DNA of 64,000 bases from the sequence record PZ338878.1; one strand, given 5' to 3'. The notes below the pieces were generated by a model that was not told the origin of the DNA, ran no database searches, and saw nothing but the letters and a program-made list of their open reading frames with translations. The translations under genes were made by a program, and so were the position numbers. This stretch comes from a phage. This document shows, in pieces, positions 1,693 to 25,477 of this stretch. The first letter of the stretch is position 1. Each line of letters opens with the position of its first letter.

Positions 1693-1704
1693 ATGATTCT
1701 CCTA

Positions 1705-1974
1705 CTAAAATGATTCGTTTGTCTCCATAATATATTGCATTTCCAAATCTTCCATATGTTTCTTAAATTGGTAAACAATTTCCGATGGGGAAATATCTAT
1801 ATCAAAAAGTTCTTTTGTACCAGAATAGAACCTAATACCATCAACAATAAGGCCACCATAATAATCCCAATCACTTTCTCGTGAGAAAGGATTAGGTTCT
1901 TCATAATAGTAATCTACTTCAACAATAATAGGTTCTTTATTATCTTGTTTATACTCAAAATCAAAAGTGTTCAT
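1705..1974 (-). CDS. hypothetical protein (89 aa, acidic)
   Basis: ORF track; tightly packed between neighbours; no recognisable motif. Confidence 0.45.
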   Translation of the reverse strand: MNTFDFEYKQDNKEPIIVEVDYYYEEPNPFSRESDWDYYGGLIVDGIRFYSGTKELFDIDISPSEIVYQFKKHMEDLEMQYIMETNESF

Positions 1975-2918
1975 TATAAATCCTCGATAAGCAGTCTGCG
2001 GGTTTCATTTAAATCATCAATATTGTAGTTATCTCTTACATACTTAGCAAGAGCCAATCCTTTCTCAATACAAACATCAGGAGATTCGATTAAGTATTCT
2101 ACAATATCTTTCCACTCTTTAACTGAATCAGCAAAGAAGATTAGATCTTTAAATTCTTCAGTATAGTAGTTCTCTCGTGGAGAACAAACGAGTGGCAAAC
2201 CTTTAGCACCAGCCTCAAGAATTTTTAAATTACTTTTGGCATTATTAAAATGATTATTTACTAACGGAGCTATGGAGATTTGATGACCATCGTATGCTTC
2301 CATATAACACTCATAAGGACGAATACCTTCATAAACACAATCTGGTTGAATATCTTCTTTAATTTGCAACCATTGAGCACTACTTAACTCTTCGTGATCT
2401 CTACGAAATCCACATAAAGTTAAATCTTTACCAAAAGTAGGAAGAATTGCTAAATCATGTTTATGGGTTTCACTTCCAGCCCAAACCAGTGGGCTTTTAG
2501 AATAACGATCTTTAGTAAGAACAAACTGTCCTTCATCAAAAGGTAGTCCGTTAGGCACAATATGTACATTATCATTGTATTGGCTTAATTCAACCTTTAA
2601 TGCTGGAGTTGTTGTAGTTACAAGATCGCTTCTTTCAAGGAACCATTTTAGGTCATCTCGGATTTGATTTTCAAATAATCCTTCCAGCATATGCCCTTCA
2701 GGAATAATTAAAGAATCATCCAAATCCATTACCAATTTAAACCCAAGCTGTTTAAGAGCCAGGAAACCTGGCTTTCCACGAGTTGGTACTCCATTGAATA
2801 CAAAAATATTATGCTTAGGATTAATAGTCAGTTTGCGTTTATATGGCAAAATGATTCTATGAAAGTCACATACACTATACCTTTCATGTCCACGTGTGTC
2901 AAGAATAATATTAGGCAT
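1974..2918 (-). CDS. glycosyltransferase, GT-B fold
   Basis: 314 aa; C-terminal NNAKSNLKILEAGAKGLPLVCS resembles the GT-B donor-binding loop (LEAMAxGxPVV; T4 alpha-glucosyltransferase LELGACGTIPVF); paralog of next gene. Confidence 0.5.
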   Translation of the reverse strand: MPNIILDTRGHERYSVCDFHRIILPYKRKLTINPKHNIFVFNGVPTRGKPGFLALKQLGFKLVMDLDDSLIIPEGHMLEGLFENQIRDDLKWFLERSDLVTTTTPALKVELSQYNDNVHIVPNGLPFDEGQFVLTKDRYSKSPLVWAGSETHKHDLAILPTFGKDLTLCGFRRDHEELSSAQWLQIKEDIQPDCVYEGIRPYECYMEAYDGHQISIAPLVNNHFNNAKSNLKILEAGAKGLPLVCSPRENYYTEEFKDLIFFADSVKEWKDIVEYLIESPDVCIEKGLALAKYVRDNYNIDDLNETRRLLIEDL

Positions 2919-2929
2919 ATGGCTCCTTG

Positions 2930-3904
2930 TTAAAGACTTTCAATAACTTGACGACGCAGTTCATTGGCATCTGCAAGATTATAATTAAGACGAACGTGCT
3001 CTGCAAGCATCATACCACGATCTTCTGTGTATCTAGGGTTCCTCATTAGCTTGACAACTTCATAATGCCAAGATGCTTTAGAGTCTGCATAAATAACAGC
3101 CTTTGCATCTACCGGATTGAAGTACGGCAGCACAGGAGAACAGATAATAGGAAGACCCTTTGCACCTGCTTCCAAAATCTTCAAATTGCTTTTACAGTTG
3201 TTGAAGTCATTATCTACCAGAGGAGCAATTGCAATACTGTGACCGTCATACACAGACATATACTCACCTAAATTTTTAATAGCTGGTTTATACTGTGCAT
3301 TTGGAATTTTACGTTTTACTTTAACCCACTCCGCAGTAGTTAGATACTGACTATTATTTCCAACAGGTGCAGAAGGATACACTTCATACCCTGCAATTGT
3401 CAATAGTGTATCATCAAATGTATTAGCTACAAGAGATAAATCAGGTTCATGGCTTGCTCCTCCAGCCCAAATAATAGGCGTGTCAGAATAACGGTCTTTT
3501 GTCAAAGTAAATTGACCTTCATCGTAAGGTAGTGCGTTTCTAATAACGACAACATTACGATTTAAATGACGAATTTTGTAAGCCAGATATTCTGTTGTTA
3601 CAGTAACAACATCTGCTAACTTAATCATCTCTACAATAGTCTTTGAGTGATTAGTAAACACGCCAGCCATATAATGTTCAGGATTAAGTGAATAAAAGTC
3701 ATCTAAATCAACAATAATCTTAACACCTTGTGCCTTCAGGCGTTTAACTTCGTCTGATCCACGAGAATACACTCTATTAAAAACTAAAACGTCTTTCTTA
3801 GGCTTAAACGTATTTCCCGCAAATGGCATTACAATACGATGGTAATCACAACCACTGCCTAACTTATTATCACACTTAAGTACAGGAGTATTAGGATTTA
3901 CCAT
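2930..3904 (-). CDS. glycosyltransferase, GT-B fold (paralog of 1974..2918)
   Basis: ORF track 2930..3943 trimmed in frame to ATG at 3904 (GAGGAGG upstream; N-terminus then aligns with the paralog: NTPVLKCDNKLGSGCDYHRIVMPF vs PNIILDTRGHERYSVCDFHRIILPY); shared C-terminal NNCKSNLKILEAGAKGLPIICS. Confidence 0.5.
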   Translation of the reverse strand: MVNPNTPVLKCDNKLGSGCDYHRIVMPFAGNTFKPKKDVLVFNRVYSRGSDEVKRLKAQGVKIIVDLDDFYSLNPEHYMAGVFTNHSKTIVEMIKLADVVTVTTEYLAYKIRHLNRNVVVIRNALPYDEGQFTLTKDRYSDTPIIWAGGASHEPDLSLVANTFDDTLLTIAGYEVYPSAPVGNNSQYLTTAEWVKVKRKIPNAQYKPAIKNLGEYMSVYDGHSIAIAPLVDNDFNNCKSNLKILEAGAKGLPIICSPVLPYFNPVDAKAVIYADSKASWHYEVVKLMRNPRYTEDRGMMLAEHVRLNYNLADANELRRQVIESL

Positions 3905-4577
3905 ATTTTTGAGCCTCCTCATAAGAGATAAAAGTTTTACCATTGCGAAGATCCTCCAGTGATTGTTTATATTGTTCCCAGTTTACACCAATCCCCTGTT
4001 CTTTCTCTTCTTTTGACAGATTCGCAAAAGGTAAAGGGTTGTCTCCAAACACATCATCAGGATGGATAAACGCCATAATTCGAATAGGACATGGTACGCC
4101 CTGAATACCTCGGTTCAAACCTGCCAGTGGAACGCGCTGAATCCACTCTGCATCTTCATATCCATAACCGTGGGTGTATGAGCGGAAATAGCCAGCTTTC
4201 TCAATAACTGCACGGGAATACATACCAAACTGGCACATACCTAGTTCCCAAATAACCACTTCACCTTCAATACCTTTTACTTTATCTTTAAAGTATTCAG
4301 GCATACCAAAGAAATCCCAGCCATTTTCCTTAGCCTGTTTTACAAAATATGTTTCCCAACCTGGCACAACCGGATAGCAATCATCATCAAAAATAAACCA
4401 GTAATCATACCCTTCATCATAAAACTTTTTCATCAGTTCATTACGGGCATATGCAACACCTTTTCGTTCCCGATCATACTGTACAACAAAAGTAGCATTA
4501 GGATCAGTCACAAGATAATCTTTAAGAGGACGCTTACCTACAGTAATAACACCAACACCAATTTTTGTATTTTCCAA
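3891..4577 (-). CDS. glycosyltransferase family 2-like (GT-A, DxD)
   Basis: 228 aa; GVAYARNELMKK followed by YWFIFDDDCYP matches the GT2 ARN plus DxD signature. Confidence 0.5.
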   Translation of the reverse strand: MENTKIGVGVITVGKRPLKDYLVTDPNATFVVQYDRERKGVAYARNELMKKFYDEGYDYWFIFDDDCYPVVPGWETYFVKQAKENGWDFFGMPEYFKDKVKGIEGEVVIWELGMCQFGMYSRAVIEKAGYFRSYTHGYGYEDAEWIQRVPLAGLNRGIQGVPCPIRIMAFIHPDDVFGDNPLPFANLSKEEKEQGIGVNWEQYKQSLEDLRNGKTFISYEEAQKYGKS

Positions 4578-4586
4578 AATAACTCC

Positions 4587-5150
4587 TTAAATAATTTTAT
4601 TCATGTCTTGACAATGTAAAAGGTGTGAAACAGCTTTTCTAGGATCATCGTTACCTAAACGGTATGTGTGAAATAAATATAACCCACGTAGTAAACCTAG
4701 CCTTTTATTGTTAGCGTGTAATGCTTTAGAGAAAATTATATCAAACTGTATTGATCTTTCCTCAAAAGGGATTTCATTCCACAGACTCTTACGAAAGAGA
4801 AGAAAGAATCCTGCTAAGATAGCATCTGTAGGTACTTCCTCTATTGAGTTTCCCCATTCTAGATGTGCTCTTTTTGCAATCTCAATGTGGTGTAATATAT
4901 TTGGATCTTCACTTCTTTCATTATTAAATAATTGATATGTTGATCCCAATCTATTACAAGATGCACCAAGAACATCAAAATCAGGATTTGAACGGACTAT
5001 TGATTCCAACCAAGCAGGTTGTTCTGGAAGAAGAAACATTGTATCAATGTCTCTTAGGCAAATCCAACTATCTTCTGGTAAGACACTTATTGTGTCATTG
5101 ATACCTTTTCCAATATCTCCAGAAAGATAGGGAGTTATGTGAAATATCAT
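4587..5150 (-). CDS. hypothetical protein, possibly nucleotide-sugar transferase-like
   Basis: 187 aa; SWICLRDIDTMF is a weak DxD-like stretch; call is tentative. Confidence 0.25.
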   Translation of the reverse strand: MIFHITPYLSGDIGKGINDTISVLPEDSWICLRDIDTMFLLPEQPAWLESIVRSNPDFDVLGASCNRLGSTYQLFNNERSEDPNILHHIEIAKRAHLEWGNSIEEVPTDAILAGFFLLFRKSLWNEIPFEERSIQFDIIFSKALHANNKRLGLLRGLYLFHTYRLGNDDPRKAVSHLLHCQDMNKII

Positions 5151-5207
5151 ACTCCCTCCGTATTATTACTTTAGCATTTTTAGACTAAAAAGTCCAAATG
5201 GTTTTAC

Positions 5208-5402
5208 CTATTGATTACGTTTTGCGAGTTCCATCTGGATAGCTAAACTGTGATCTCGTGCTTCCATATACTCTTTATATGTTTCATTAAGATGATCACG
5301 ACAAACATCACGCAGTTTAATCAGTTTATCTGTAGGGATACCACTAAGATCATCCCAAGACTTTACAACTTCACCAGTATCATTGATCCCAATGGTTTTC
5401 AT
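5208..5402 (-). CDS. hypothetical protein (64 aa)
   Basis: ORF track; no motif. Confidence 0.4.
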   Translation of the reverse strand: MKTIGINDTGEVVKSWDDLSGIPTDKLIKLRDVCRDHLNETYKEYMEARDHSLAIQMELAKRNQ

Positions 5403-5610
5403 CTACAACCTCCTTAATTGCTACAGCACAGTTTTTGCAGATACACTGCCCTTTACCTTTAGAAATCTGGATGTAAGGTTCATTTTCATTTTCGCCCTTA
5501 CGTGAGTCATATATTACAGAATTGAAGCACACAACGCAAATATTTTTTAAGATTGTATACTTATCAACTTTCTTTTTTGTTTTAAAGTTAACTTCAATAA
5601 CATCAGCCAT
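5380..5610 (-). CDS. hypothetical zinc-ribbon protein (76 aa)
   Basis: Two Cys pairs (CVVCF...CICKNC); track ORF 5380..5658 trimmed in frame to ATG at 5610 (MADVIEV), which abuts the upstream stop. Confidence 0.4.
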   Translation of the reverse strand: MADVIEVNFKTKKKVDKYTILKNICVVCFNSVIYDSRKGENENEPYIQISKGKGQCICKNCAVAIKEVVDENHWDQ

Positions 5611-5888
5611 CAGTGTAACACTCCCAGTATGTTGTTTTGTGACATAACCATAGAACATTCAACATTATCGTGACTACGTGAAAAACGTTCCCAAACATCT
5701 TCATCGACTCGTAAAGCTATACAAGGATAGACGTTATCATTGATCATTTCAATTGAATAAACATCCACATTGTCTTCGTCTTCGATGAACATCATTGCAA
5801 ACTGTTCTAAATGTTTCCTAATGTAATGTACATCCTCTTCTGTAAGACCAATAACAAGATAACTTGCAACGATAACGCCATCTTTCAT
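5610..5888 (-). CDS. hypothetical protein (92 aa)
   Basis: ORF track; no motif. Confidence 0.4.
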   Translation of the reverse strand: MKDGVIVASYLVIGLTEEDVHYIRKHLEQFAMMFIEDEDNVDVYSIEMINDNVYPCIALRVDEDVWERFSRSHDNVECSMVMSQNNILGVLH

Positions 5889-5898
5889 CTATATCTCC

Positions 5899-6408
5899 TT
5901 AGCGATAGAATTGATGTTCTTTGTAGCGGTACACTAGAACCATATCTTTTTCCCAGTGTGCTCTTATTGTAGATTTTTTAAAGTATAATGCTCCTTTTGT
6001 AATATCTAATGCAATTCGTAATTCTGGAAAATGGTTATCGAGATAAAGTAGACGTTCTGCTATAGCTTTAGCGTCTTTCCACTTATCGTGTTCCATAACG
6101 TTGAATGTCTTCGTGTAAGAGAATTGTCCTTTTTGAAACAAAACTTCTTTTATAGTATCAGGGAAATATGAATCTCTCGCCCTATTCAATACTACATTAC
6201 CAACAGCAGACATACCGCGCTTTCCTTGATTACGACTTTCTGCATAGATTGCACAAGCTAATAGATTTTCTTTACTATCACGCTTTGTACACTTGTGAAC
6301 TACTTTAGCAGTTTTTACGTTTGCAGCTTCGGCTTGCGCCACAACAGGTGTAAATGTAAAAGCAGTTAAGGATAGTAACGCAATTGCGACAAAGGTTTTT
6401 ATTGACAA
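5899..6408 (-). CDS. secreted cell-wall hydrolase, SleB/CwlJ-like; candidate endolysin
   Basis: 169 aa; signal-peptide-like N-terminus MSIKTFVAIALLSLTAFTFTPVVAQA; LACAIYAESRNQGKRGMSAVGNVVLNRA matches the SleB-type hydrolase motif. Confidence 0.55.
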   Translation of the reverse strand: MSIKTFVAIALLSLTAFTFTPVVAQAEAANVKTAKVVHKCTKRDSKENLLACAIYAESRNQGKRGMSAVGNVVLNRARDSYFPDTIKEVLFQKGQFSYTKTFNVMEHDKWKDAKAIAERLLYLDNHFPELRIALDITKGALYFKKSTIRAHWEKDMVLVYRYKEHQFYR

Positions 6409-6500
6409 ACTTGCCTCCTATTTTGTTAAACGAACTTTTATTGTAACACAGAAGAGGCTATTTTGCAAGTGGAGGGGGATAATCCCCCTCTTACACTCTG

Positions 6501-7103
6501 TTAGATATTGTAAACCTTTGTATGAGTTACTACACCATCTTCTACAAAATCAATACGTTCTTGATCCGTAACTAGTGCAGACAACACTTTAAATTTAATT
6601 TTTACACGTTCAAAAGCTGGTTGACCATCTTTAAGATAATTATGTTCAGTTGTCACTGTCTTGTTTACAAAATCAACTTTTGCTTTACCGTTCTCGCGTA
6701 AGTGGAATGTTTTTCCTGCTTTATACACAATTTCAACATTACCTTCGAGAGTAATTCCTTCAAAAAGTTCACCCTCTTCTTCATTTTCTTCACTTTTGAA
6801 CAGACGACGAAACTCTTCCATATCAAGATAAACAACATCTTCAGAATAACTATCAGTAAGATATGTCTTACCCTCCATTAACCCGAAATATTGCCAGATT
6901 GCCGAATAAACATCACTAGATGATCCAAGGGTTTCTCTGAGTTTAGTTCCACGGATTACTTCATAAACTTCAAAATTGAAACCAGACTGCAAAGCATCAA
7001 ACAGCACATCACTAACTTCTAAAGCATAATCTTCATTGTTGTCAATATCTACAAGAAAATTGCCGCTACGAATAAGTTTTTGACCTTCTAAAGTAATACT
7101 CAT
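6501..7103 (-). CDS. hypothetical protein (200 aa, acidic)
   Basis: ORF track; SD AAGAGGAG upstream; no motif. Confidence 0.45.
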   Translation of the reverse strand: MSITLEGQKLIRSGNFLVDIDNNEDYALEVSDVLFDALQSGFNFEVYEVIRGTKLRETLGSSSDVYSAIWQYFGLMEGKTYLTDSYSEDVVYLDMEEFRRLFKSEENEEEGELFEGITLEGNVEIVYKAGKTFHLRENGKAKVDFVNKTVTTEHNYLKDGQPAFERVKIKFKVLSALVTDQERIDFVEDGVVTHTKVYNI

Positions 7104-7167: not shown

Positions 7168-7764
7168 TTACTCGAACCAATCGTCGCCAGCGCCAAACGC
7201 TTTAACTACATCGTAAATGTCAAGCCCAGCTTTACCTACACCATATGCTTTCAGTTTCCATTCGCTATCTTCTCGCACCAGGGAGGCAACGTGGCAAATG
7301 GTGTTACCTGCAAGTTCTGGAGCCAAGAAGTCAAAGTCCAGCAGTTCAACATTACGTTCATCATCGAAGATTTTAAGGAAACCTTCGGTAGCGTGACCAA
7401 GGCGTTTCTTACCCGTTTCGTCATCAATAGTAATTACGAATGCAATTTCCTGTGCTTCAGCAGAGATATTATCCAGTGTAACATCAATCTGCTCCATCTG
7501 TCCTACACCATCACGAACATCTTCACCTGCAAAAGTAGAACGTTCAGGATCAAATTTCTGTGCGTAGCACACCAGGTGACGAGGAGACAACAGTTCCGGC
7601 AGACCAGATGCATTGTGTCGGCAAATCAGAGCACTAACATCCAGATCCAGTTTTTCGTTAGATTTCCAAGAGAATTCCAGACGAATGCGTTTCAGTGCTG
7701 GTGCGATCTTTTTCAGAGAAACTTTTTCGCTAGAACCTTTTTTCAGGGAAATTTTCTGAGTCAT
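7168..7764 (-). CDS. TerD-family protein
   Basis: 198 aa; DLDVSALICR, GEDVRDGVGQMEQIDVTL, ITIDDETGKK, LVREDSEWKLKAYGVG are canonical TerD-domain motifs; SD AAGGAG. Confidence 0.8.
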   Translation of the reverse strand: MTQKISLKKGSSEKVSLKKIAPALKRIRLEFSWKSNEKLDLDVSALICRHNASGLPELLSPRHLVCYAQKFDPERSTFAGEDVRDGVGQMEQIDVTLDNISAEAQEIAFVITIDDETGKKRLGHATEGFLKIFDDERNVELLDFDFLAPELAGNTICHVASLVREDSEWKLKAYGVGKAGLDIYDVVKAFGAGDDWFE

Positions 7765-7837
7765 AATTTATTATCTCCTTTGTTGTTAATTTACGTTGTC
7801 TATTTTACTAATCTTTTCTACAAAGTCAAGCGTTTTT

Positions 7838-8632
7838 TTACGCTTTTGCTCCGAATTTTTTAACCCACTCACCAAACTCTTCAGATAACAATTTATCGTA
7901 AAGTTCTTCATCAGACAAGGACAAATCTGCAATACCGATAAAATCAACATTATCGTACTCTTTTGCCAAGTCTTTCAGGAATTTAAAGTTTGCATTACCT
8001 ACACCAACCATAAACCAGTAAACAGGCGTATTGCGGTGTTTGTTCAGTAAGCTACGTACTGCTGAAGTATCCATGTTTTCCCCGTCAGTTTGGAAGAAAA
8101 TCATTGCAGGAGTACGATCAACTTGTGCATCAGTATCTACAACCTGTTCTACAACAGTACGTGTTACTTCTACAAGTTCTTTTTTACCAGTTAGTTTAGC
8201 AAGGAAACCCTTAGCTGGGACTTCTTCATACTCAACGACTTCGCGTGTAATATTTTTCATAGGTACACTACCGAAGTATGTATCATAGATCTCCTGCATT
8301 ACTGGAGCATAAGCAGTACCACCATTGATGCAAACATTAGACATGCAAGAGCCGACATAATCATCATACACATCAGCCGTTGCAGGAGGCAGTTCAAAAG
8401 AAGAACTATTGAAAGCCCACATGTCAATCTGTGCATTGTCATCAAACTTCATACCAAACGGCAGCAGTTTACCTACAAAATCACTAACAGTGCCATCACG
8501 ATACAGCTCACACATACTACCCGAAATATCTAAGGCGCTACCGACACGAAGAACAACATCGTTAATCTTTTTCTTACGCAGAGATACAGTAAGAGTTTCT
8601 TGACGTTTTTTAAGACTGATTTTATTGGACAT
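7838..8632 (-). CDS. von Willebrand factor A (vWA) domain protein, TerY/TerF-like
   Basis: 264 aa; MIDAS motif DISGSM, then GGT, FFQTDGE, MVGVG; N-terminus ISLKKRQETLTVSLRKK echoes the TerD N-terminus ISLKKGSSEKVSLKK. Confidence 0.6.
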   Translation of the reverse strand: MSNKISLKKRQETLTVSLRKKKINDVVLRVGSALDISGSMCELYRDGTVSDFVGKLLPFGMKFDDNAQIDMWAFNSSSFELPPATADVYDDYVGSCMSNVCINGGTAYAPVMQEIYDTYFGSVPMKNITREVVEYEEVPAKGFLAKLTGKKELVEVTRTVVEQVVDTDAQVDRTPAMIFFQTDGENMDTSAVRSLLNKHRNTPVYWFMVGVGNANFKFLKDLAKEYDNVDFIGIADLSLSDEELYDKLLSEEFGEWVKKFGAKA

Positions 8633-8633
8633 A

Positions 8634-8903
8634 TTATTTCTCCTTTCTGAGTGTAATGTTAGTAACTTCTAAATCCACTTCTACCATTTCTGTATCATAT
8701 GAAATACAGCTAAGTTGACCTCTTTGTGAACCGTTCAGACACATTGCTTGGTTTGTATTAACTTTAATAAACACTAAGTTTCTGAACGTATCTAAACCAG
8801 AATCTTGATACGCAACATAATATACGAATGTATCACCTGCGTCAAGTTCTCCAAAACATTTAGGTTCATCTGATTTATCGTCTTTGATATTAAATTTAAG
8901 CAC
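8634..8903 (-). CDS. hypothetical protein (89 aa)
   Basis: ORF track; no motif. Confidence 0.4.
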   Translation of the reverse strand: MLKFNIKDDKSDEPKCFGELDAGDTFVYYVAYQDSGLDTFRNLVFIKVNTNQAMCLNGSQRGQLSCISYDTEMVEVDLEVTNITLRKEK

Positions 8904-9459
8904 TGTCTTCTCCTTTACCTGCCCTCCAGCCTAAATAGAAAGCCTCTCTGGTGATCTTTTGCAACTCGTTTAAAGAGATAGTTACAACTAAATTATCTTC
9001 AATTTCTAGCTTTGAGTCTTCTTCTGTCTCAATGCAAGTATTATGCACTTTGTGGTAAGGATTGTCAACACGTTTAAATTTATTATTTTCAGTGCTGAAG
9101 AAGCAATCTGGATCTTCTTCTCCATCACCCCAACCCTGGTTAGGGTCTTCTTCAGATCTTTCTGTTGGGATCTCACCTGTAAAGTGCTCTTCTAATACCA
9201 TAGCGATACCATCTCCAAGATCGGAAGAGAACATCAAATTACAAACTTCTTCCCAAGGCATAGACCACTTAAATCTTTTACGATTACCATGTTTATCTTC
9301 TTCGTTAGAGAAAACACTACCATAGCTATCATAATTGCCATACATCTCTTCAACAACTTTACCACCTTTCAAAAGAAATAGGTAGCAAGGAGAACCATCG
9401 AAAGAGGTAGAAAGAGCAGCATTGCCAGACTCTTTGCACAAGAAACTAAAACACCCCAT
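8896..9459 (-). CDS. hypothetical protein (187 aa, acidic)
   Basis: ORF track; no motif. Confidence 0.4.
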   Translation of the reverse strand: MGCFSFLCKESGNAALSTSFDGSPCYLFLLKGGKVVEEMYGNYDSYGSVFSNEEDKHGNRKRFKWSMPWEEVCNLMFSSDLGDGIAMVLEEHFTGEIPTERSEEDPNQGWGDGEEDPDCFFSTENNKFKRVDNPYHKVHNTCIETEEDSKLEIEDNLVVTISLNELQKITREAFYLGWRAGKGEDSA

Positions 9460-9659
9460 TATACACCAGCCTTAAGATCAATTAAAGCCAAAGTTGTTTC
9501 AGAATGTGTTTGCTCGTCTACAGGTGCAGTCATATGATAATACAAAAAGTCTTCGGCATCATACCAATCTGATTCTTGACCTTGTTTCCAACCATCAATG
9601 AAAGCATCCTCCATAATGGTTTGTAATTCTTCACGAGTTAAGTGAATATCTTTATTCAT
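9459..9659 (-). CDS. hypothetical protein (66 aa)
   Basis: ORF track; no motif. Confidence 0.35.
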   Translation of the reverse strand: MNKDIHLTREELQTIMEDAFIDGWKQGQESDWYDAEDFLYYHMTAPVDEQTHSETTLALIDLKAGV

Positions 9660-9865
9660 TACACATTCTCCTCTTTTACCAATTCCATCGTTGAACTATC
9701 AAAACCATCTTTAGAAGAATAGGTATAGACAGAACGTAGTTCTCGCAGGACAGTAAATACATTAGGATCATCTAACCAAGCATCCTGGAGGAGAACATAA
9801 CGATCTTCATTGTCATACTGGACAGCAATCATAGAACCAGACAGTTTGTAAATTTTAATATTCAT
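9659..9865 (-). CDS. hypothetical protein (68 aa)
   Basis: Track ORF 9659..9892 trimmed in frame to ATG at 9865, preceded by AAGGAG. Confidence 0.4.
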   Translation of the reverse strand: MNIKIYKLSGSMIAVQYDNEDRYVLLQDAWLDDPNVFTVLRELRSVYTYSSKDGFDSSTMELVKEENV

Positions 9866-9878
9866 AATATATTTCTCC

Positions 9879-10982
9879 TTAAAGTAGACCACGTTTAACA
9901 GTTTGAATCATACCATCTTCAAGAGATTGCACTTCTTGAATGTAATCAATACGAGCAGCACGGGCTTCAGTGTTGATTCGGTTAGTTTCTTCCAACATTT
10001 TAACTAAGTTTTCTTGATCGCGACGTAATGTTTCAATATCCAATACTTGACGATTAGCAAGTTGCGTAGCTTCAATTTGGTTTTGTGCAGCCAGATCACT
10101 ACCCATTGCAATAGCAGCATTAAATTCATTCAGTACATTGTTCTGTGTATCGGCTGCTTTCTTCTGGCGTAGACTTTCAATATACATAGAAAAGTTTGCA
10201 GAGTAAGCAGGAATAACATTATTCACAATATTACGGGCTGATCGCATCAAACTTGCAGATACTTTCTGCATACTTTGTACACGTGGCCCCATCTGAACAC
10301 ACAGTAAACGCAAGGCTTTCAGGTCTGCAATACGAATTTCAAGCAGATCCATAGTATCACGAGTACGTTGACGCTCTTCTACTTCATTTTCAGGTAGTGT
10401 ATTAAGGCGAACTTCTTCTTTTTCATAAGTAGCTGTTAGAAGCTCTATATCCCTGTTTAAGCTAAGAGCATATTTTGCAATAGCCTCTTCTAAACGTTGC
10501 AGATATCGTAAAGAATCTTCTTCTTTTTTCAAGTCTGTTTGGAGTGTCTTTACCAAACCTTCAATACGATTATTGATGGTGTCAAATTCACCAAACAAAT
10601 CTTCTTTCATACCTAATACTTTCTTAACTAGTTTACCTAAGCCTTTAGATTGTTTAATAGAATTAGGATCAAGTTGCTTTGCTTGCTTAATAAGTGCAGT
10701 TAAACGCTCACTCATTTCATCTCCCTGAGATGAACGCTGGTGTTTAAGCACTTCCGCATTAAGGTTACGAAGAGTAAGTCCTGCATCAGCACCAACCTGT
10801 TCAATCTCTTCACGAGACATTGGAGGCAGCATTTGTACAGGTCGTGCAACAGCAGGGGCATATACAGGGCTTGCATCCATAGCAGTTGGAGCAAACAAAG
10901 ACTTACTTTTTTCTGTTGTTGCCGTGAATACACTCATTTCAGACGGTTTGCTTTTTACGGCACTGATAAAAGGACTGGACAT
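9879..10982 (-). CDS. TelA-like protein (toxic-anion-resistance / KlaA family)
   Basis: 367 aa; long helical coiled-coil body and N-terminal region resembling TelA; call rests on overall pattern rather than one motif; SD GGAGGA. Confidence 0.5.
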   Translation of the reverse strand: MSSPFISAVKSKPSEMSVFTATTEKSKSLFAPTAMDASPVYAPAVARPVQMLPPMSREEIEQVGADAGLTLRNLNAEVLKHQRSSQGDEMSERLTALIKQAKQLDPNSIKQSKGLGKLVKKVLGMKEDLFGEFDTINNRIEGLVKTLQTDLKKEEDSLRYLQRLEEAIAKYALSLNRDIELLTATYEKEEVRLNTLPENEVEERQRTRDTMDLLEIRIADLKALRLLCVQMGPRVQSMQKVSASLMRSARNIVNNVIPAYSANFSMYIESLRQKKAADTQNNVLNEFNAAIAMGSDLAAQNQIEATQLANRQVLDIETLRRDQENLVKMLEETNRINTEARAARIDYIQEVQSLEDGMIQTVKRGLL

Positions 10983-11050
10983 TCAATTTCCTCCATATTC
11001 TTTAGTAGATGGTGATACCTCTGTACCACCATCATAACACAAATTAAGTA

Positions 11051-11902
11051 TTAAACAAACATATCTAAATAATTTGTAGTAATAAATGCTCCATCTGCTT
11101 CCAGATTAACATAACCAGTAGCATTAGTGGTTAAGAAATCCAGATCGAAGGACTCTTTAACACCCCGTACCTCAACACGAGAGATATCGAATACAGGTAG
11201 TGTAACAGCCTCTTCGTGCAATACCGTACCTTTGTAGGTTGCCTTAATGATAAACTTGATATTACCCGTTCCCGCATCATACAAAACACTTTCAAAGCCT
11301 TTGAGAGTATACTTATCACCAGAGGTGAAGTGCAAAGTTGCTTTGTTTACAGTACGTTTTTTACGAGGAGTTCCTTTCACACGTTTATGATCACTACGTT
11401 TTTTGTATTTAGGAATGAATACAAACGATACACTCTCAAGAAAAGTATCAACATCAAGGATTTTAATATCCTCTGTTGCAGCAAATTTTGAAGTCGTTGC
11501 ATCAAAATGCTTTGCTCTGCGATCATACATAAAGATATCAAACCGATCTTCTAAATCAAACAAATTGTGTATCTTAATTTCAGAATGCTTGCACATTGCA
11601 GCAACCTTAAACTCTTCAAAACGTGGGTGTTCTACAAGCTCTTCAAGTTTTACACCAAAGACAGTATATTGTTTCGAAGTTTTTTCTGGCGTTGGCATTA
11701 CAGAAGCATAATCACCGATTGCGCTTTTAAAGCAAAATTGTTCTTGACCTGTATTTTTACCAACGAATTTACAGTATTCGTCATCGTGCATACTTTCTTT
11801 GGTAGTACCAACAAACTCAAAACCATCTTTATTCTTCTCAAGAATTTCTTGATTAAAGATCCAACCTTCCAGGCGATACACTTTACCAACTTCTAGTTTC
11901 AT
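11051..11902 (-). CDS. hypothetical protein (283 aa)
   Basis: ORF track; no motif. Confidence 0.4.
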   Translation of the reverse strand: MKLEVGKVYRLEGWIFNQEILEKNKDGFEFVGTTKESMHDDEYCKFVGKNTGQEQFCFKSAIGDYASVMPTPEKTSKQYTVFGVKLEELVEHPRFEEFKVAAMCKHSEIKIHNLFDLEDRFDIFMYDRRAKHFDATTSKFAATEDIKILDVDTFLESVSFVFIPKYKKRSDHKRVKGTPRKKRTVNKATLHFTSGDKYTLKGFESVLYDAGTGNIKFIIKATYKGTVLHEEAVTLPVFDISRVEVRGVKESFDLDFLTTNATGYVNLEADGAFITTNYLDMFV

Positions 11903-11937
11903 CTGTTTCTCCTTCTTATTTAATCTGTATTAAATTA

Positions 11938-12528
11938 TTAACGACGACGTGAGCTACTAAAACTACGTTTCGACGAAGAATAACTTTTCGAAGACTTACT
12001 ATAAGAGCTAATAGGGCTTGAGTAAGACTTACGAGCAGAGTAATCACTATTCACTTTTGTTGTTGATGGGCGTGAATACGTTTGTACACTTTGCTGCTTA
12101 ATTGTGTTTTGTTTAGTTGTTGTATATGTATTCCCTTGTTTATCATAAAAACTATGCTTTTGTGTTGTATATGATTTACTGTTAGTTGTAGGAGCAGCGT
12201 TGTTATTAATAATTGTTGTATTGCTACCGCCATCTCTATAACCACCACCGCCACTATTACCACTCAACATATGACCAAGAAGCATACCTGTAGCAAATTC
12301 ACCTACACCAGAAGAACCACTGCCGCCTCCTTGCACAACAACTGTTGAAGGCTGTGCAGGTGCTGCTTGAACAACTTGAGGTGCAGGTTGATTTACATAT
12401 TGTTCATCTACCATCTGATTTGGTGTCTGTTGGTAACGTTGGTTTTGTACATTTTCAGAATCATCACAACCTACCAGCAATGCACTACCTAAAACAACTG
12501 CAACAATAAAAGATTTAATGTTTTTCAT
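11938..12528 (-). CDS. lipoprotein with glycine zipper and low-complexity Ser/Tyr/Lys tail
   Basis: Trimmed in frame to ATG 12528 (MKNIKSF, AGAGGG upstream); lipobox LLVGC; GGGSGSSGVGEFATGMLLGHMLSG. Confidence 0.5.
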   Translation of the reverse strand: MKNIKSFIVAVVLGSALLVGCDDSENVQNQRYQQTPNQMVDEQYVNQPAPQVVQAAPAQPSTVVVQGGGSGSSGVGEFATGMLLGHMLSGNSGGGGYRDGGSNTTIINNNAAPTTNSKSYTTQKHSFYDKQGNTYTTTKQNTIKQQSVQTYSRPSTTKVNSDYSARKSYSSPISSYSKSSKSYSSSKRSFSSSRRR

Positions 12529-12721
12529 TTGTAACCCTCTCATTTAAAGTCTCGACACAATTTTTAAAATCTCTAGAGAAACAATACATCTGTTCTCCGT
12601 TCCTGTTGATAGTAATTGTATGGTTATCAACATATGTTGTCAAGATAAAAATCAAACAAAATAACCCTAAAGCAAAACAAATATTTTCAAACAGAATCCA
12701 AAGAACACGTAAAACCACCAT
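12515..12721 (-). CDS. small hydrophobic protein (68 aa)
   Basis: ORF track; predicted TM segment; weak. Confidence 0.3.
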   Translation of the reverse strand: MVVLRVLWILFENICFALGLFCLIFILTTYVDNHTITINRNGEQMYCFSRDFKNCVETLNERVTNEKH

Positions 12722-12730
12722 CAGATCACC

Positions 12731-12754
12731 TCAATAAAGCCCCCGAAGGGGCTT
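12731..12754 (-). terminator. putative intrinsic terminator after TerC gene
   Basis: GC hairpin aagcccc-cgaa-ggggctt followed by a short U-rich tract on the minus strand. Confidence 0.35.
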
Positions 12755-12760
12755 AATAAA

Positions 12761-13738
12761 TTAAGCAACAGACTGGTCTTCTTTTTCAGGGAAGATTAAA
12801 CTTGCAATAACACCCAGCCCCAGAGTACCTAACACAATATACATACTGATCGTCGGATCAATGTGTGCTGGCAGGAAACTCACTTTTGCGTGCAGAGTTT
12901 CTGCAAACGGGTGATACATCAGTTTTACACCCACAAATACCAGGACTACGATAACTGCTTTCTCCAGATGAACCAAATATTTCAGTGCAACACTAAGGAC
13001 AAAGAACAGAGCACGCAGACCTAAAATTGCACACAGCATTGAAGAAAATACAAGCAGAGGTTCTTGTGTCACTGCAATTACTGCTGGAACAGAGTCTACT
13101 GCAAAAATTACGTCAACCATTTCCATTACAAATACACAAACCAATGCAGGAGTTGCTACACGAACACCATTTTTGATTGTGAAGAACTTCTCACCATCCA
13201 TCTGATCAGATACAGGGAACAGCTTACGAACAATGCGAGTAGCCCAGTGCTTAGAGTAATCAACTTCTGCGTCATTATCTCCAGCAAATACCATTTTAGC
13301 TGCACAGAAAAGGATGACCGCACCGAAGAAGATATTAACATACCAACCCAAACTCAACAAGTAAGTGCCTACTGCTACAAACACACCTCGGAAGACAATC
13401 GCACCTGCAATACCCCAAAGTAGAATCTTGTGTTGCAAGTGTGTGCTTTTAATACCAAAACTTGCGAATACTGCCACAAATACTACTAAGTTATCTACAG
13501 AAAGAGATTTCTCCAACACATACCCACTCAAAAACAAGCTCGCAAAATCAGCACCGTGTTGGAAGTATACAAAACCATAGTAGGCTAACGATACCCCAAT
13601 CCAGAAAATTGACCAGCCAATTGCAGATTTAAATGAAATTTCTTTGTTTTCTCTGTGTCCAAAGAAATCAATACAAATCGACAAGACTAAAATACCCACT
13701 AAAACAACCACATCAATAATTGGGAAACCCAGTTGCAT
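12761..13738 (-). CDS. TerC-family integral membrane protein
   Basis: 325 aa, multi-pass hydrophobic; YVLEKSLSVDNLVVFVAVF is the TerC signature; SD AGAGGAG. Confidence 0.8.
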   Translation of the reverse strand: MQLGFPIIDVVVLVGILVLSICIDFFGHRENKEISFKSAIGWSIFWIGVSLAYYGFVYFQHGADFASLFLSGYVLEKSLSVDNLVVFVAVFASFGIKSTHLQHKILLWGIAGAIVFRGVFVAVGTYLLSLGWYVNIFFGAVILFCAAKMVFAGDNDAEVDYSKHWATRIVRKLFPVSDQMDGEKFFTIKNGVRVATPALVCVFVMEMVDVIFAVDSVPAVIAVTQEPLLVFSSMLCAILGLRALFFVLSVALKYLVHLEKAVIVVLVFVGVKLMYHPFAETLHAKVSFLPAHIDPTISMYIVLGTLGLGVIASLIFPEKEDQSVA

Positions 13739-13757
13739 TCTTTTCTCCTCTTTAATG

Positions 13758-13776
13758 CGGAGGACAATCCTCCGCT
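13758..13776 (-). promoter_or_regulatory. stem-loop in 5-prime UTR of TerC gene
   Basis: gcggagg-acaat-cctccgc perfect 7-bp stem, about 15 nt upstream of the TerC SD. Confidence 0.35.
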
Positions 13777-13815
13777 CTATGTCGTATACTATAAACTGTT
13801 TTTAAAGAAAGTCAA

Positions 13816-14064
13816 CTAGTTCAGTTCTGTAATTTTAAGTTTATCTTCTTTGTTAATGATAGGGAAAGCTACAGCATCACCTACATCATCAATAAAGCAA
13901 ACAGCAAGACCACCTTCCACTTTGCTAACCTGACCATTAAAGGCGTGATACGGGGCAGGAACAATATCTCCATCTTCAAGGAGAATAGCCTCATAAACCT
14001 TACCAATAGTACAATCACGAGTGTTTTTAAATTTTTCAAGCACTTCAACATTTACTTTACGCAT
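13816..14064 (-). CDS. hypothetical protein (82 aa)
   Basis: ORF track; no motif. Confidence 0.4.
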   Translation of the reverse strand: MRKVNVEVLEKFKNTRDCTIGKVYEAILLEDGDIVPAPYHAFNGQVSKVEGGLAVCFIDDVGDAVAFPIINKEDKLKITELN

Positions 14065-14078
14065 ATAAAGATCCTCTC

Positions 14079-14285
14079 TTATTTGTTAGATTGAAAGATA
14101 CCACGAAGTACCGCAAGAATGAACGTCACACAGACTACACTCCAAAACGTTACAGGAACATGATGCCAGTCTAAGCCGATAATGTCAATCATATAGTTGT
14201 ATGCTAAAAGCAGTAGCCAACTAGGGATTAACACAATCAAGAACACAACAATAAAACAACCTAATACTGCTAAAACACCTGCCAT
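14079..14285 (-). CDS. small membrane protein (68 aa)
   Basis: ORF track; two hydrophobic segments. Confidence 0.4.
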   Translation of the reverse strand: MAGVLAVLGCFIVVFLIVLIPSWLLLLAYNYMIDIIGLDWHHVPVTFWSVVCVTFILAVLRGIFQSNK

Positions 14286-14294
14286 ACTTTCTCC

Positions 14295-15011
14295 TTATTT
14301 CAGTTTGTAAACAATTACATTTAAACCTTTGTTCACTAGAGTTTCTTCGATCATAAGTTTTACAATATTCCAAGAACCTCCAGCCAAACCACAACCAAGC
14401 ATTGGTAAACCTACAATTTTACCGCCTGAAGATACAACATCGTCTCCCATACTATCTAACGCATTGTAGATAGCTTCATAATTCAGGTCACGCTTACCTT
14501 CCTCACGACGACTATAACCATATTGTCCATATAAATTATAAATTGTCAAATTGTTTTCTGTATACTTAGTAAACGTACCTAATTTTTTATAATCACCACG
14601 TTTAGTGGCACAATCTGCTTTAAACGCACCAGGCCACTTGCTTTTAATTTTTGGTGCAATACCACTACCCATAGTGCAAAAACAGTTACAGCAGTGTGCT
14701 ATAGCGTCTATATCGCCTCTCTCTGCTGCTGCTAAAAGATCACCGTATACCTCAATGATACCTGGTGGATAACTTGTTACAATTTCATCTTCCCAGTACA
14801 TTTGCTCTACACCACCGATCAGTGCAAAGTTTTGTGTGATGCGATCATCAATATAATTAAGACCTGAAACATACACAGCATATTCATCCTGTGCTGTAAT
14901 GCCTTGTACACGAATTCTTAAGACACCATCTTTATCTGTTGCTACACGCCCAAAATCTTTTTCTGTAATATTGGTGATAGGATCTCCGAAAGTCGTCACT
15001 TTATTAGACAT
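14295..15011 (-). CDS. macro-domain protein, TARG1/DarG-like (putative ADP-ribose hydrolase)
   Basis: Track TTG start replaced by in-frame ATG 15011 (AAGGGG upstream); AIAHCCNCFCTMGSGIAPKIKSKW and GLPMLGCGLAGGSWNIVKLMIEE parallel the TARG1 motifs as recalled (HC...C.MG.GIA and IGCGL...W..V); about 100-aa N-terminal extension of unknown function. Confidence 0.55.
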   Translation of the reverse strand: MSNKVTTFGDPITNITEKDFGRVATDKDGVLRIRVQGITAQDEYAVYVSGLNYIDDRITQNFALIGGVEQMYWEDEIVTSYPPGIIEVYGDLLAAAERGDIDAIAHCCNCFCTMGSGIAPKIKSKWPGAFKADCATKRGDYKKLGTFTKYTENNLTIYNLYGQYGYSRREEGKRDLNYEAIYNALDSMGDDVVSSGGKIVGLPMLGCGLAGGSWNIVKLMIEETLVNKGLNVIVYKLK

Positions 15012-15073
15012 AATAATCCCCTTTAACATTAGATTTGTTGATAATGTTGCTTTCAAAAAATTGACGCAGGAAA

Positions 15074-15862
15074 TCAAAGTTCTCTTTGTATTTTTTCAAT
15101 ATTATTGTAACCTTCTGCAAGGCAACCAAAGAACAGTTGTTCTACATAATACAAAGGAAGTTGTGAAAGTGCAATTTTAAAATCAACTTCGCTTTGACTC
15201 ATTAGATACTTAATAGGACGAACCAAACATTTAGCATCAGTTTCTTGCTTAATCATTTTAATAAAAGCTGCCAAGTTATTGATATAGTTGAAGTTAAGTG
15301 CAGCTTCGGTGTTGGCTTCTGTACCTTCATACTTTGCAAAGTACAGGAAAAACGTATCGTTTTCAACACCTTCTTTGTCTAAAATTTCAATAAGTTTTTC
15401 TTCGTGTGTTCCTGTAATATTAACATCATCAATGAAAATCAGAGTTTTATTACCCCAGAAATCACGATTGATAGAGAAAGTGTCACCATCGATCAAAGCC
15501 TTACGATCTTCTTTGCTAAGAAATCCATAATCATTGATATAACTCACTTTACGATGAACGATATCCCACTCTACTGCTTTACCTCCTTTGATAGAGATTA
15601 GGTAGTTGAGGTGATCTACAAAATGCTCAGATAACACTGTAGCTGCATTTTTCACATAGTTATATGGAGATGGAATAACAACAAAACTTTCATTTGCCAG
15701 TCGTTCTTCATACTTAGAAAAGAAACTTTCAGCCAAAATGCGCCCCATTCTTTTTGCTGCCTGGTTACTACCAAACTTTAGTTTGGAATAATCTGCAATA
15801 TTAAATTTTGCTTCCTTCAGGTTAGTAAAAGTATTAGCAAAATGTTGAATTTGATTACGCAT
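15074..15862 (-). CDS. phosphoribosyltransferase (type I PRTase) domain protein
   Basis: 262 aa; TLIFIDDVNITGTHEEKL is the PRPP-binding signature; SD AGAGGAA. Confidence 0.55.
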   Translation of the reverse strand: MRNQIQHFANTFTNLKEAKFNIADYSKLKFGSNQAAKRMGRILAESFFSKYEERLANESFVVIPSPYNYVKNAATVLSEHFVDHLNYLISIKGGKAVEWDIVHRKVSYINDYGFLSKEDRKALIDGDTFSINRDFWGNKTLIFIDDVNITGTHEEKLIEILDKEGVENDTFFLYFAKYEGTEANTEAALNFNYINNLAAFIKMIKQETDAKCLVRPIKYLMSQSEVDFKIALSQLPLYYVEQLFFGCLAEGYNNIEKIQREL

Positions 15863-16511: not shown

Positions 16512-16513
16512 TT

Positions 16514-16669
16514 TTAATCCTCCGTCCAAAAGAATATCATCTGCTTAATTTTATTGATCTCTTGATGTAGTAACTTTCCAGCATGTGATTGATCTTTAAT
16601 ATTGACAGCAAGAATTTCAAGCTCCGTTAGTTTTTCCTGAATAGCTTTATATTCATCATCTGTAAGCAT
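16514..16669 (-). CDS. hypothetical small protein (51 aa)
   Basis: Manual translation MLTDDEYKAIQEKLTELEILAVNIKDQ...; AGGGGAAG upstream; its stop overlaps the SD of the HAD gene. Confidence 0.3.
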   Translation of the reverse strand: MLTDDEYKAIQEKLTELEILAVNIKDQSHAGKLLHQEINKIKQMIFFWTED

Positions 16670-25476: not shown

Positions 25477-25477
25477 T

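Follow-up and report, generated by a model that had tools for sequence, protein, structure and literature searches.

The glycosyltransferase cluster and its surroundings

We analyzed a 64,000-nucleotide stretch of phage DNA (sequence record PZ338878.1, referred to here as the window) with a focus on four consecutive genes near its start. The phage is a phi92-like coliphage (Justusliebigvirus), a lytic myovirus with a 146-kb genome and a Gram-negative host, and the window is 98–99% identical to published phages in which all four genes already carry a public annotation as glycosyltransferases. The genes and a small adjoining open reading frame (ORF) are as follows, GT1 to GT4 being the genes and "GT4-like" and "GT2-like" denoting enzyme groups:

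1705–1974, minus strand: acidic ORF with no assigned function (89 aa; phrog_4240, E = 8e-35; pI 4.1)
1974–2918, minus strand: GT1, GT-B glycosyltransferase (GT4-like, retaining-type fold; 314 aa), lineage-specific duplicate of GT2
2930–3904, minus strand: GT2, GT-B glycosyltransferase (GT4-like), ancestral copy of the pair; longest ORF to 3943 (337 aa)
3891–4577, minus strand: GT3, GT2-like GT-A glycosyltransferase (228 aa, TTG start)
4587–5150, minus strand: GT4, minimal GT-A glycosyltransferase (187 aa), first gene of the cluster

The four transferase ORFs are thus present where the original prediction had placed them, and its description of their location between a primase-helicase and a Ter-like module also held: Pfam identified a Toprim/DnaB primase-helicase on the flank at the start of the window, and TerD, vWA-TerF, TelA and TerC downstream on the other. 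The Ter-like module, which also includes Macro, ComF-like PRTase and HAD genes, lies ~2 kb from the cluster and is separated from it by six unrelated ORFs (5208–7103). The same neighborhood recurs in a diverged relative, the metagenomic contig L015.

The cluster is packed in an operon-like manner, with gaps of 9–11 nt or short overlaps between genes. A promoter and terminator scan found no terminator-like sites between the cluster genes and promoter-like sites at chance level (29 found versus 26 ± 4.6 expected), with no sub-structure in the cluster. The 89-aa acidic ORF and GT1 share a single base, where the start of the former meets the stop of the latter, and a small ORF also occupies this position, between a GT-B gene and the primase-helicase, in SKA64, Klebsiella phage phi1_175008 and L015; the 89-aa ORF may be an accessory to the transferase module. 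None of the four transferases is hydrophobic overall (GRAVY −0.16 to −0.53), three are acidic (pI 5.1–5.6), and the two cluster proteins that were modeled are compact and confidently folded. NCBIfam and PADLOC gave no matches for any of the four proteins, and searches of PDB sequences with GT1, GT3 and GT4, both as single sequences and as profiles, returned nothing useful, the GT1 profile weakly matching MshA and TreT.

Two GT-B and two GT-A enzymes

GT1 and GT2 each have two Rossmann-like domains, constituting a GT-B fold, and belong to the GT4-like group of the Pfam Glyco_trans_1 clan. GT1 scored 26.8 bits against PF13524 (cut-off 25), the Pfam scores of GT2 were below threshold (18.1 and 14.7 bits), and both proteins matched phrog_7162 (~E = 1e-145; E = 3.7e-149 for GT2). 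The C-terminal donor-binding residues K228, S229, K232 and E235 are invariant in 41 family members, both paralogs included, and the first Glu of the canonical EX7E motif is absent, as read from the sequence. The prediction of two paralogous GT-B enzymes is upheld. In related phages with reduced clusters, the single GT-B enzyme has 46–66% identity to GT2 versus 38–41% to GT1, which indicates that GT2 is the ancestral copy and GT1 a lineage-specific duplicate. The predicted start of GT2, the ATG at 3904, is likely to be correct since it is preceded by a GAGGAGG ribosome-binding site and agrees with the lengths of homologs.

Structural matches to GT1 included enzymes with lipid-linked or lipid acceptors (PglH/WlaC, PglA, PimA, WbnH, WaaG and WaaB) and, among the top matches, sucrose-phosphate synthase, BshA and TreT, which are transferases for small molecules. 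B736L of a chlorovirus and the mimivirus proteins R655 and R699 were also among the structural matches to the cluster. As the acceptors of the closest GT1 matches range over sugars, lipids, lipid-linked glycans, small thiols and proteins, the acceptor cannot be told from the fold.

GT3 matches phrog_2456 (E = 2e-79), and its motifs FDDD (63–66) and YGxED (138–142) are invariant. The residues F63-D64-D65-D66 are present without exception in an alignment of 18 close relatives, and in 75 distant relatives D66 never varies, whereas D64 and D65 are conserved in at least 90%. A profile search of a representative library returned 1475 GT3 relatives; PF00535 was matched by 38 and PF02709 by 33 of 75 GT3-profile relatives, GT3 itself having no PF00535 match. 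The invariant FDDD and the Pfam GT2 matches of these 38 extended-family members support the prediction of a GT2-like DxD enzyme. The only phage relatives of GT3 outside its subfamily are mycobacteriophage transferases, mostly of Cheoctovirus/cluster F, such as Boomer gp102, plus Myrna gp234. GT3 resembles the GT-A domain at the N-terminus of these transferases, and 341 Mycobacterium phage records match it. Boomer gp102 aligns with GT3 over ~180 residues at 27% identity, with E-values of 7e-13 (small local database) and 7e-8 (tblastn), a relationship at the superfamily level.

GT4, originally the weaker fourth candidate, can now be considered a transferase, as GT-A glycosyltransferases, including the wall-teichoic-acid transferases RmlT, TarP and TarS, are the only structural matches to its high-confidence model. 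Its invariant residues are D34-x-D36, N66, R67, H161 and H176, and the model assigns it a GT-A fold with a DxD motif. The possibility that GT3 and GT4 are paralogs was rejected because profile–profile comparison gave no significant relationship.

Putative rhamnose supply and the contexts of remote homologs

A complete dTDP-L-rhamnose pathway, rmlBACD, was identified in phage EmilieFrey, a relative 98% identical over the cluster that served as the source of the rml genes and for scans of the rest of the genome. The rml genes lie ~70 kb from the cluster, outside the window, and had Pfam scores of 254 (RmlA), 274 (RmlB), 237 (RmlC) and 243 bits (RmlD). Records of RmlC are about as numerous as those of the transferases (~55 in Justusliebigvirus and ~77 in Phapecoctavirus), and Klebsiella phage phi1_175008 has RmlC and a reduced transferase cluster. 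We infer that some or all of the sugar donor used by the four transferases would come from this pathway.

Remote homologs of the cluster genes in small phages are often located inside terminase–portal–capsid modules, beside sugar-tailoring enzymes. In L025, a pair of genes resembling GT3 and GT2 immediately precedes those for small terminase, portal, protease and capsid, and in L024 and L012 homologs of GT4 lie between terminase and portal with O-methyltransferase-type, deacetylase and other transferase genes. In L022 the GT1/GT2 homolog precedes the small terminase by ~4 kb, and directly before the homolog come two genes, one of the GT2 family and one of hexapeptide-repeat (acetyltransferase) type. 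In addition, gp39 of Cellulophaga phage phi18:2 is between minor capsid and prohead protease genes, gp4–gp5 of Streptomyces phage Zuko adjoin the terminase, and the homologs in L011, L013 and L015 are accompanied by DegT aminotransferase, epimerase/dehydratase and methyltransferase genes. Tailoring of this sort is characteristic of protein or surface glycans. In small phages, genes for DNA modification are also often found beside the terminase.

Evidence against DNA as the acceptor

The original prediction favored glycosylation of the phage's genomic DNA by these transferases to evade restriction, possibly as a multi-sugar or branched modification. A multi-sugar product is reasonable for four transferases; genomic DNA as the substrate is very unlikely based on several lines of evidence. 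The prediction had noted that no hydroxymethylase was visible in the window, and Pfam scans of non-structural ORFs of at least 100 aa, in the window and, as the recommended search elsewhere in the genome, in EmilieFrey (five large genes with good annotation set aside), identified neither a hydroxymethylase nor a TET/JBP protein nor any other recognizable enzyme that would make an acceptor. The sole thymidylate synthase is ThyX-type (PF02511) and was rejected as a disguised hydroxymethylase for that reason. A Dcm-like C5 methylase is encoded at 62962–63951, and the phage also has a Dam-like methylase; EcoRI and EcoRV sites are present in its DNA.

The GT-B donor-binding loop had been likened to that of T4 alpha-glucosyltransferase (AGT); this likeness proved generic, no closer than to many GT-B enzymes, as AGT was outranked by seventeen unrelated GT-B enzymes among the structural matches, none of the top 50 viral structural matches was a T4 transferase, and no cluster enzyme had a family-level sequence match to AGT or BGT. 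In contrast to T4, no hydroxymethylcytosine pathway was recognized in the scanned genes. TAGT (PF20691) and the beta-glucosyl-HMC alpha-glucosyltransferase of T2/T6 (phrog_842) are, like GT3, DxD-containing GT-A enzymes, and their GT3 matches are weak and partial. That to TAGT reached 23.3 bits, below the 27.5 cut-off, and is confined to the nucleotide-binding third of the protein (residues 16–75). A similar weak match to TAGT was common to 11 of 75 GT3 relatives versus 38 of 75 for generic GT2, and as the extended family is mostly generic GT2, identity of GT3 as a TAGT was rejected.

The DNA of these phages also appears to be readily cleaved. The phi92-like phages were described as "exceptionally susceptible" to restriction-modification systems (Maffei 2021, PMC8594841), and the phages in question, Bas60–62, are ~98% identical to the window. 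Six-base palindromes are strongly avoided: 12 of 46 are absent or nearly so in the window versus 4 of 3358 other hexamers, and in the whole genome of a relative the counts are 17 of 54 versus 18 of 3824. Avoided sites span the G/C-only GGCGCC and the A/T-rich AAGCTT, the latter having 0 occurrences genome-wide versus 45 expected. This avoidance implies that the DNA is cleavable and has long been exposed, unprotected, to type II enzymes. Several earlier papers on such phages have speculatively proposed a "rhamnose modification" of DNA, an assumption that conflicts with the site avoidance and the missing acceptor-making enzyme. Less probable still is a new kind of nucleic-acid glycosylation by the cluster and the rhamnose pathway, one that needs no hydroxymethylase and is too sparse or site-specific to block common restriction enzymes, for example at a few genomic positions, DNA ends or phage tRNAs; it would have been missed so far because the DNA sequences and cuts normally.

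Candidate acceptors and related systems

The prediction's fallback, glycosylation of protein or LPS, is a better reading than DNA, and we tentatively favor glycosylation of the phage's own virion proteins. The cluster would then represent a cytoplasmic glycan-assembly module in which two retaining-type GT-B and two DxD-type GT-A enzymes add sugars sequentially to a non-DNA acceptor, with a donor coming at least in part from the phage's own dTDP-L-rhamnose pathway. The acceptor would be one or more virion proteins, which would come to carry a short rhamnose-containing surface glycan, and the process would resemble the way in which virus-encoded enzymes glycosylate the capsids of mycobacteriophages and the capsids and fibrils of giant viruses. 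The donor sugar, order of transfer and acceptor are all putative. No glycan has been reported on phi92-type virions in the searchable literature, where only speculation was found on DNA or virion glycosylation in these phages. The position of the cluster with replication rather than structural genes, in this phage and its large relatives, weighs against a virion acceptor.

Two other kinds of acceptor have to be weighed against virion proteins. Remodeling of the host envelope, which we consider rather unlikely, would have the enzymes, supplied with dTDP-rhamnose, modify undecaprenyl-linked intermediates or LPS core on the cytoplasmic side of the inner membrane, so that LPS, ECA or another surface glycan of the infected cell is altered and, for example, superinfection or the sticking of progeny to debris is blocked. 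The lipid acceptors of several GT1 matches and the teichoic-acid transferases matched by GT4 are consistent with such a role, and rhamnose often occurs in enterobacterial O-antigens. These phages also recognize surface glycans, and LPS core glucose has been proposed as the terminal receptor of phi92-like phages (PMC8594841). However, the cluster contains no flippase, GtrA/GtrB-like or membrane-anchored component, and an envelope target does not readily account for the remote homologs found within head-morphogenesis modules of small phages. The phage is, moreover, strictly lytic, and the old surface glycan persists during a short infection.

Slightly less probable is a cytoplasmic target apart from the virion, such as a host protein, phage or host RNA (e.g., tRNA) or a small molecule. 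The location of the cluster among early/middle replication genes close to the Ter-like module, the retention of this neighborhood in L015 and the small-molecule transferases among the GT1 matches could all be explained in this way. One variant involves the nucleoside-like product proposed for the neighboring Ter/PRTase/HAD module; production of a nucleoside-like metabolite by Ter-associated PRTase/HAD modules was reportedly proposed by Anantharaman et al. in 2012. A host-protein variant would be comparable to T4 ADP-ribosylation. Against this, the adjacency to Ter genes, with six ORFs intervening, is ordinary synteny in one subfamily, the small-phage homologs have no Ter genes nearby, and a full phage rhamnose pathway suggests that sugar is needed in quantity and not for a catalytic or signaling use.

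Several known systems invite comparison with the cluster. Where it cites Freeman et al. 2023, PMC11256854 reports that cluster F1 mycobacteriophages glycosylate their capsids, with Che8 and Rita as F1 phages having virion glycosylation. That system likewise depends on cytoplasmic phage-encoded transferases whose genes are outside the structural module. In contrast, the phage analyzed here is a lytic 146-kb myovirus of a Gram-negative host with four transferases and a full rhamnose pathway, the similarity to the mycobacteriophage enzymes is only 25–27% identity, of the kind shared across the GT2 superfamily in general, and no conserved Ser/Thr-rich acceptor tail was found. The transferase systems of the giant chloroviruses and mimiviruses, which glycosylate virion surfaces, similarly combine a rhamnose nucleotide-sugar pathway with several soluble transferases; their hosts are eukaryotic and there is no close sequence relationship, so that the analogy is one of logic and not of system homology. 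GtrABC-type O-antigen modification is another case of phage-encoded glycosylation of a non-DNA target. Gtr systems, which are found in temperate phages, consist of a membrane flippase, a bactoprenol transferase and a membrane-embedded serotype-specific transferase, whereas the cluster belongs to a lytic phage and its four proteins are not hydrophobic overall; no Gtr-like ORF was identified in it from the ORF list or Pfam.

The conserved four transferases and four rhamnose-pathway genes represent a sizeable investment in phages (phi92-like and phAPEC8-like) that are among the coliphages of broadest host range and are in development for therapy. If their virions are glycosylated, this would be, to our knowledge, without precedent among phages of Gram-negative bacteria, with a direct bearing on antibody recognition, mucus interaction and the pharmacokinetics of therapeutic phages. 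A host envelope or cytoplasmic target would, if true, represent a new takeover mechanism.

One specific acceptor, the Ser/Thr/Asn-rich C-terminal tail of the Justusliebigvirus tail sheath, was considered and dropped, as this tail is absent in Citrobacter phage Tr1 and in Phapecoctavirus, yet the latter carries all four transferase genes.

Composition of the transferase cluster

All four tandem transferase ORFs of the original prediction are present, and its enzyme calls, a GT-B pair, a GT2-like DxD enzyme and a fourth transferase, proved correct. Together with the ORF that follows them, they are arranged as follows:

1974-2918, minus strand, GT1 (GT-B)
2930-3904, minus strand, GT2 (GT-B)
3891-4577, minus strand, GT3 (GT-A)
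4587-5150, minus strand, GT4 (GT-A)
directly after GT1 (1-base overlap with the GT1 stop), minus strand, 89-aa ORF, then the Toprim/DnaB primase-helicase

The genes are spaced by 9-11 nt gaps or short overlaps. No terminator-like sites were found inside the four-gene run and promoter-like hexamers occur in it at the frequency of chance, which is consistent with the cluster and the replication genes forming one transcription unit. The longest ORF for GT2 begins at 3943; the originally proposed start, the ATG at 3904, is preceded by the ribosome-binding site GAGGAGG and yields a protein as long as homologs usually are. The stretch 1700-5400 is 98-99% identical across its full length to >50 published Justusliebigvirus phages (phi92-like, Stephanstirmvirinae), among them pEC-M2929-1AR.1, W22, PHB05 and the BASEL phage EmilieFrey (Bas61). 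Several of these records already label the four genes "glycosyltransferase (x4)", and the curated EmilieFrey record has "putative disaccharide synthase (x2)" and "putative glycosyltransferase (x2)". Neither the four genes nor the idea of DNA glycosylation is thus new, both having been published before.

GT1 and GT2 are paralogues, as predicted (41% identity, E = 1e-82), both of which match phrog_7162 end to end, and GT1 scores above the cut-off for Pfam Glyco_trans_1_2. In an alignment of 41 sequences K228, S229, K232 and E235 of the C-terminal domain are invariant, at the usual place of GT4-type donor-binding residues. A donor loop resembling that of T4 alpha-glucosyltransferase had also been proposed, but no specific kinship emerged: the nearest structural neighbors of the GT-B enzymes in a predicted viral structure library are uncharacterized transferases that uncultured phages or giant viruses encode, with no T4 enzymes among the best 50 matches. 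The lone GT-B of reduced or diverged clusters is 46-66% identical to GT2 versus 38-41% to GT1, and GT1 is therefore a duplicate specific to this lineage.

The FDDD and YGxED motifs of GT3 are invariant in its alignment, and its profile, run against 1.8 billion representative proteins, identified 1475 relatives, 75 of which were scanned with Pfam. Generic GT2 was matched by 38 of the 75 and Glyco_transf_7C by 33, in keeping with GT3 probably being an ordinary GT2-like enzyme with a DxD motif, as first proposed. Its assignment as a TET-associated glycosyltransferase (TAGT) was rejected, as the match is below the cut-off and covers residues 16-75 only, and weak TAGT matches were found in only 11 of the 75 relatives. 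GT4, the weaker fourth candidate of the prediction, had no sequence matches in Pfam, NCBIfam or PDB and no detectable relationship to GT3, but it has an invariant D34-x-D36.

Acceptor of the transferases

The most probable role of the cluster is a rhamnose-containing glycan, which the four transferases would assemble on an acceptor other than DNA. Olsen et al. 2020 noted a complete dTDP-rhamnose pathway in phi92-like and Phapecoctavirus genomes and speculated on DNA glycosylation (PMC7552041). The EmilieFrey genes rmlB, A, C and D map to 116-119 kb, a region outside the window that is separated from the transferases by ~70 kb, and all four products have strong Pfam scores. GT1, GT3, GT4 and RmlC were each found by tblastn in similar numbers of records (~55 Justusliebigvirus and ~75 Phapecoctavirus), and Klebsiella phage phi1_175008 keeps RmlC with a cluster reduced to GT4 and one GT-B. 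A functional link would agree with this co-occurrence but is not proved by it, because all are core genes of one subfamily.

Glycosylation of the phage's genomic DNA by the four enzymes, which the original prediction preferred and which had been speculated on in print, is in our estimation very improbable. To our knowledge, all DNA glycosylations require an acceptor-making step. The prediction had seen no hydroxymethylase in the window, and Pfam scans of ORFs of at least 100 aa in the window and in the remaining non-structural EmilieFrey genome, apart from five long genes with good annotation, revealed neither a ThyA-type hydroxymethylase nor a TET/JBP, a transglycosylase or the like. Dam-like and Dcm-like methylases did turn up. 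The annotated "thymidylate synthase" was rejected as a hydroxymethylase of this type, since it carries the ThyX motif and matches PF02511. In addition, the four transferases have no particular kinship to DNA glycosyltransferases. Maffei et al. 2021 found the tested phages Bas60-62 "exceptionally susceptible" to restriction-modification "despite ... a putative dTDP glycosylation machinery" (PMC8594841), and the same point is made in PMC10844046.

Strong avoidance of six-base palindromes also argues against DNA as the acceptor. Of the 46 palindromes expected at least 5 times in the window, 12 are missing or all but missing, whereas among non-palindromic hexamers this is so for 4 of 3358; in the EmilieFrey genome the values are 17 of 54 versus 18 of 3824 (Mann-Whitney p ~4e-19). 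Genome-wide observed versus expected counts are 0 versus 45.5 for AAGCTT, 0 versus 32 for CTGCAG, 0 versus 21.9 for GGTACC and 0 versus 19.7 for GGATCC, and in the window these four words, CGATCG, AGTACT, CAGCTG, CCATGG and others have 0 occurrences with 5-17 expected. GAATTC and GATATC (EcoRI, EcoRV), GATC and CCWGG are not avoided in the window. A few words without palindromic symmetry are likewise absent, namely GATGAG/CTCATC and GACATC/GATGTC from the window and GGTCTC/GAGACC from the whole genome; type IIS or type III enzymes may recognize them. As the avoided palindromes include both G/C-only and A/T-rich words, no single base appears shielded. Phages with blanket hypermodification have no need of restriction-site avoidance, and the pattern indicates a DNA that restriction enzymes would be able to cut. 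A nucleic-acid modification that is sparse or of an unconventional kind is conceivable but improbable.

Genomic context suggests virion proteins as the acceptor, a tentative reading on circumstantial evidence that we nevertheless consider the leading single candidate. In large relatives the cluster stays next to the primase-helicase and DNA polymerase genes; a nucleotide-sugar epimerase/dehydratase is inserted in it in one compared locus (L015), and radical-SAM and DegT aminotransferase genes accompany it in another (L011). In small phage genomes homologs repeatedly lie within or head the packaging/head-morphogenesis module. In locus L025 a GT3-like and GT2-like pair immediately precedes a run of small terminase, portal, MuF, protease and capsid genes, and GT4 homologs lie between terminase and portal in L024 and L012, where Methyltransf_24 genes, further transferases and a polysaccharide deacetylase accompany them. 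In L022 a GT1/2 homolog is ~4 kb upstream of the small terminase, and immediately before it come a gene of the GT2 family and one with hexapeptide repeats (acetyltransferase-type). Likewise, gp39 of Cellulophaga phage phi18:2 lies between minor capsid and prohead protease genes, and an epimerase-transferase pair adjoins the terminase in Streptomyces phage Zuko. Phage relatives of GT3 outside Stephanstirmvirinae comprise 341 Mycobacterium phage records, mostly Cheoctovirus/cluster F (e.g., Boomer gp102), and Myrna gp234. The cluster F1 phages Che8 and Rita reportedly have capsid-protein glycans made by right-end phage transferases (PMC11256854, citing Freeman 2023).

These head-module contexts, the mycobacteriophage relatives and the phage's own sugar supply make virion-protein glycosylation the most natural reading, and the four-gene cluster may be likened to the systems that glycosylate virion proteins in mycobacteriophages and giant viruses, although similarity is at the superfamily level. 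The case is weakened by the cluster sitting among replication genes here. Moreover, DNA-modifying genes of small phages occupy terminase-adjacent positions as well. The literature searched gave no published reports of glycosylated phi92-type virions.

One specific acceptor was rejected. The tail sheath of Justusliebigvirus and Klebsiella phage phi1_175008 has a Ser/Thr/Asn-rich end (…TNRTANSQNSNSSTVSS; EmilieFrey sheath, L003:10170-11576), but this tail is not conserved where transferase genes are present: it is absent from the sheath of Phapecoctavirus, which carries all four genes, and also from those of Citrobacter phage Tr1 and rV5 (L018-L021 compared).

Two other acceptors have to be weighed against virion proteins, both of which we regard as unlikely. 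Remodeling of the host envelope would fit the structural neighbors PglH, PglA, PimA and WaaG, which use lipid-linked acceptors, and the glycan-centered biology of these phages, but all four proteins are predicted to be soluble, the lifestyle is lytic and homologs are placed in head modules. Slightly less probable still is another cytoplasmic target, a host protein, RNA or a small molecule tied to the adjacent Ter/PRTase/HAD module, for which synteny is the sole argument. The Ter-like module (7168-16529, minus strand) near the cluster includes:

7168-7764, minus strand, TerD
7838-8632, minus strand, vWA-TerF
9879-10982, minus strand, TelA
12761-13738, minus strand, TerC
14295-15077, minus strand, Macro domain
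15074-15862, minus strand, ComF-like PRTase_3
15855-16529, minus strand, HAD hydrolase

It resembles the Ter-associated "nucleoside-like metabolite" systems that Anantharaman et al. reportedly proposed in 2012.

Other features

A 201-aa ORF in the Ter-like region (11938-12543, minus strand) combines a signal of the lipoprotein type (…LVGC) with a C-terminal tail that is long, of low complexity and rich in Ser/Thr/Tyr; glycosylation of this protein is conceivable. Two Pfam-negative ORFs lie between a Dcm-like C5 cytosine methyltransferase (62962-63951, minus strand) and a Sir2-family protein (60818-61630, minus strand); no TET/JBP partner turned up in the scans.

The UvrD/Rep-type helicase ORF (22702-25515, minus strand, 937 aa) contains an intein/Hint insertion (Intein_splicing, Hint). 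EmilieFrey and Nernie have an orthologue of just 1737 bp, so the isolate of the window has an intein absent from these close relatives. A 465-aa ORF (34298-35695, plus strand) with five CapR-homology repeats precedes the gene of a NADAR-domain (YbiA-like) protein (35696-36247, plus strand); the gene that EmilieFrey has in place of this ORF measures only 978 bp.

Much bigger glycan clusters surround the transferase homologs in the metagenomic phage contigs L013 and L011, with genes for GT-D-like, TOD1_MUCI70, DegT aminotransferase, epimerase/dehydratase, radical-SAM/SPASM and Methyltransf_24 proteins. Phage-encoded synthesis of complex glycans may be more widespread than usually assumed.
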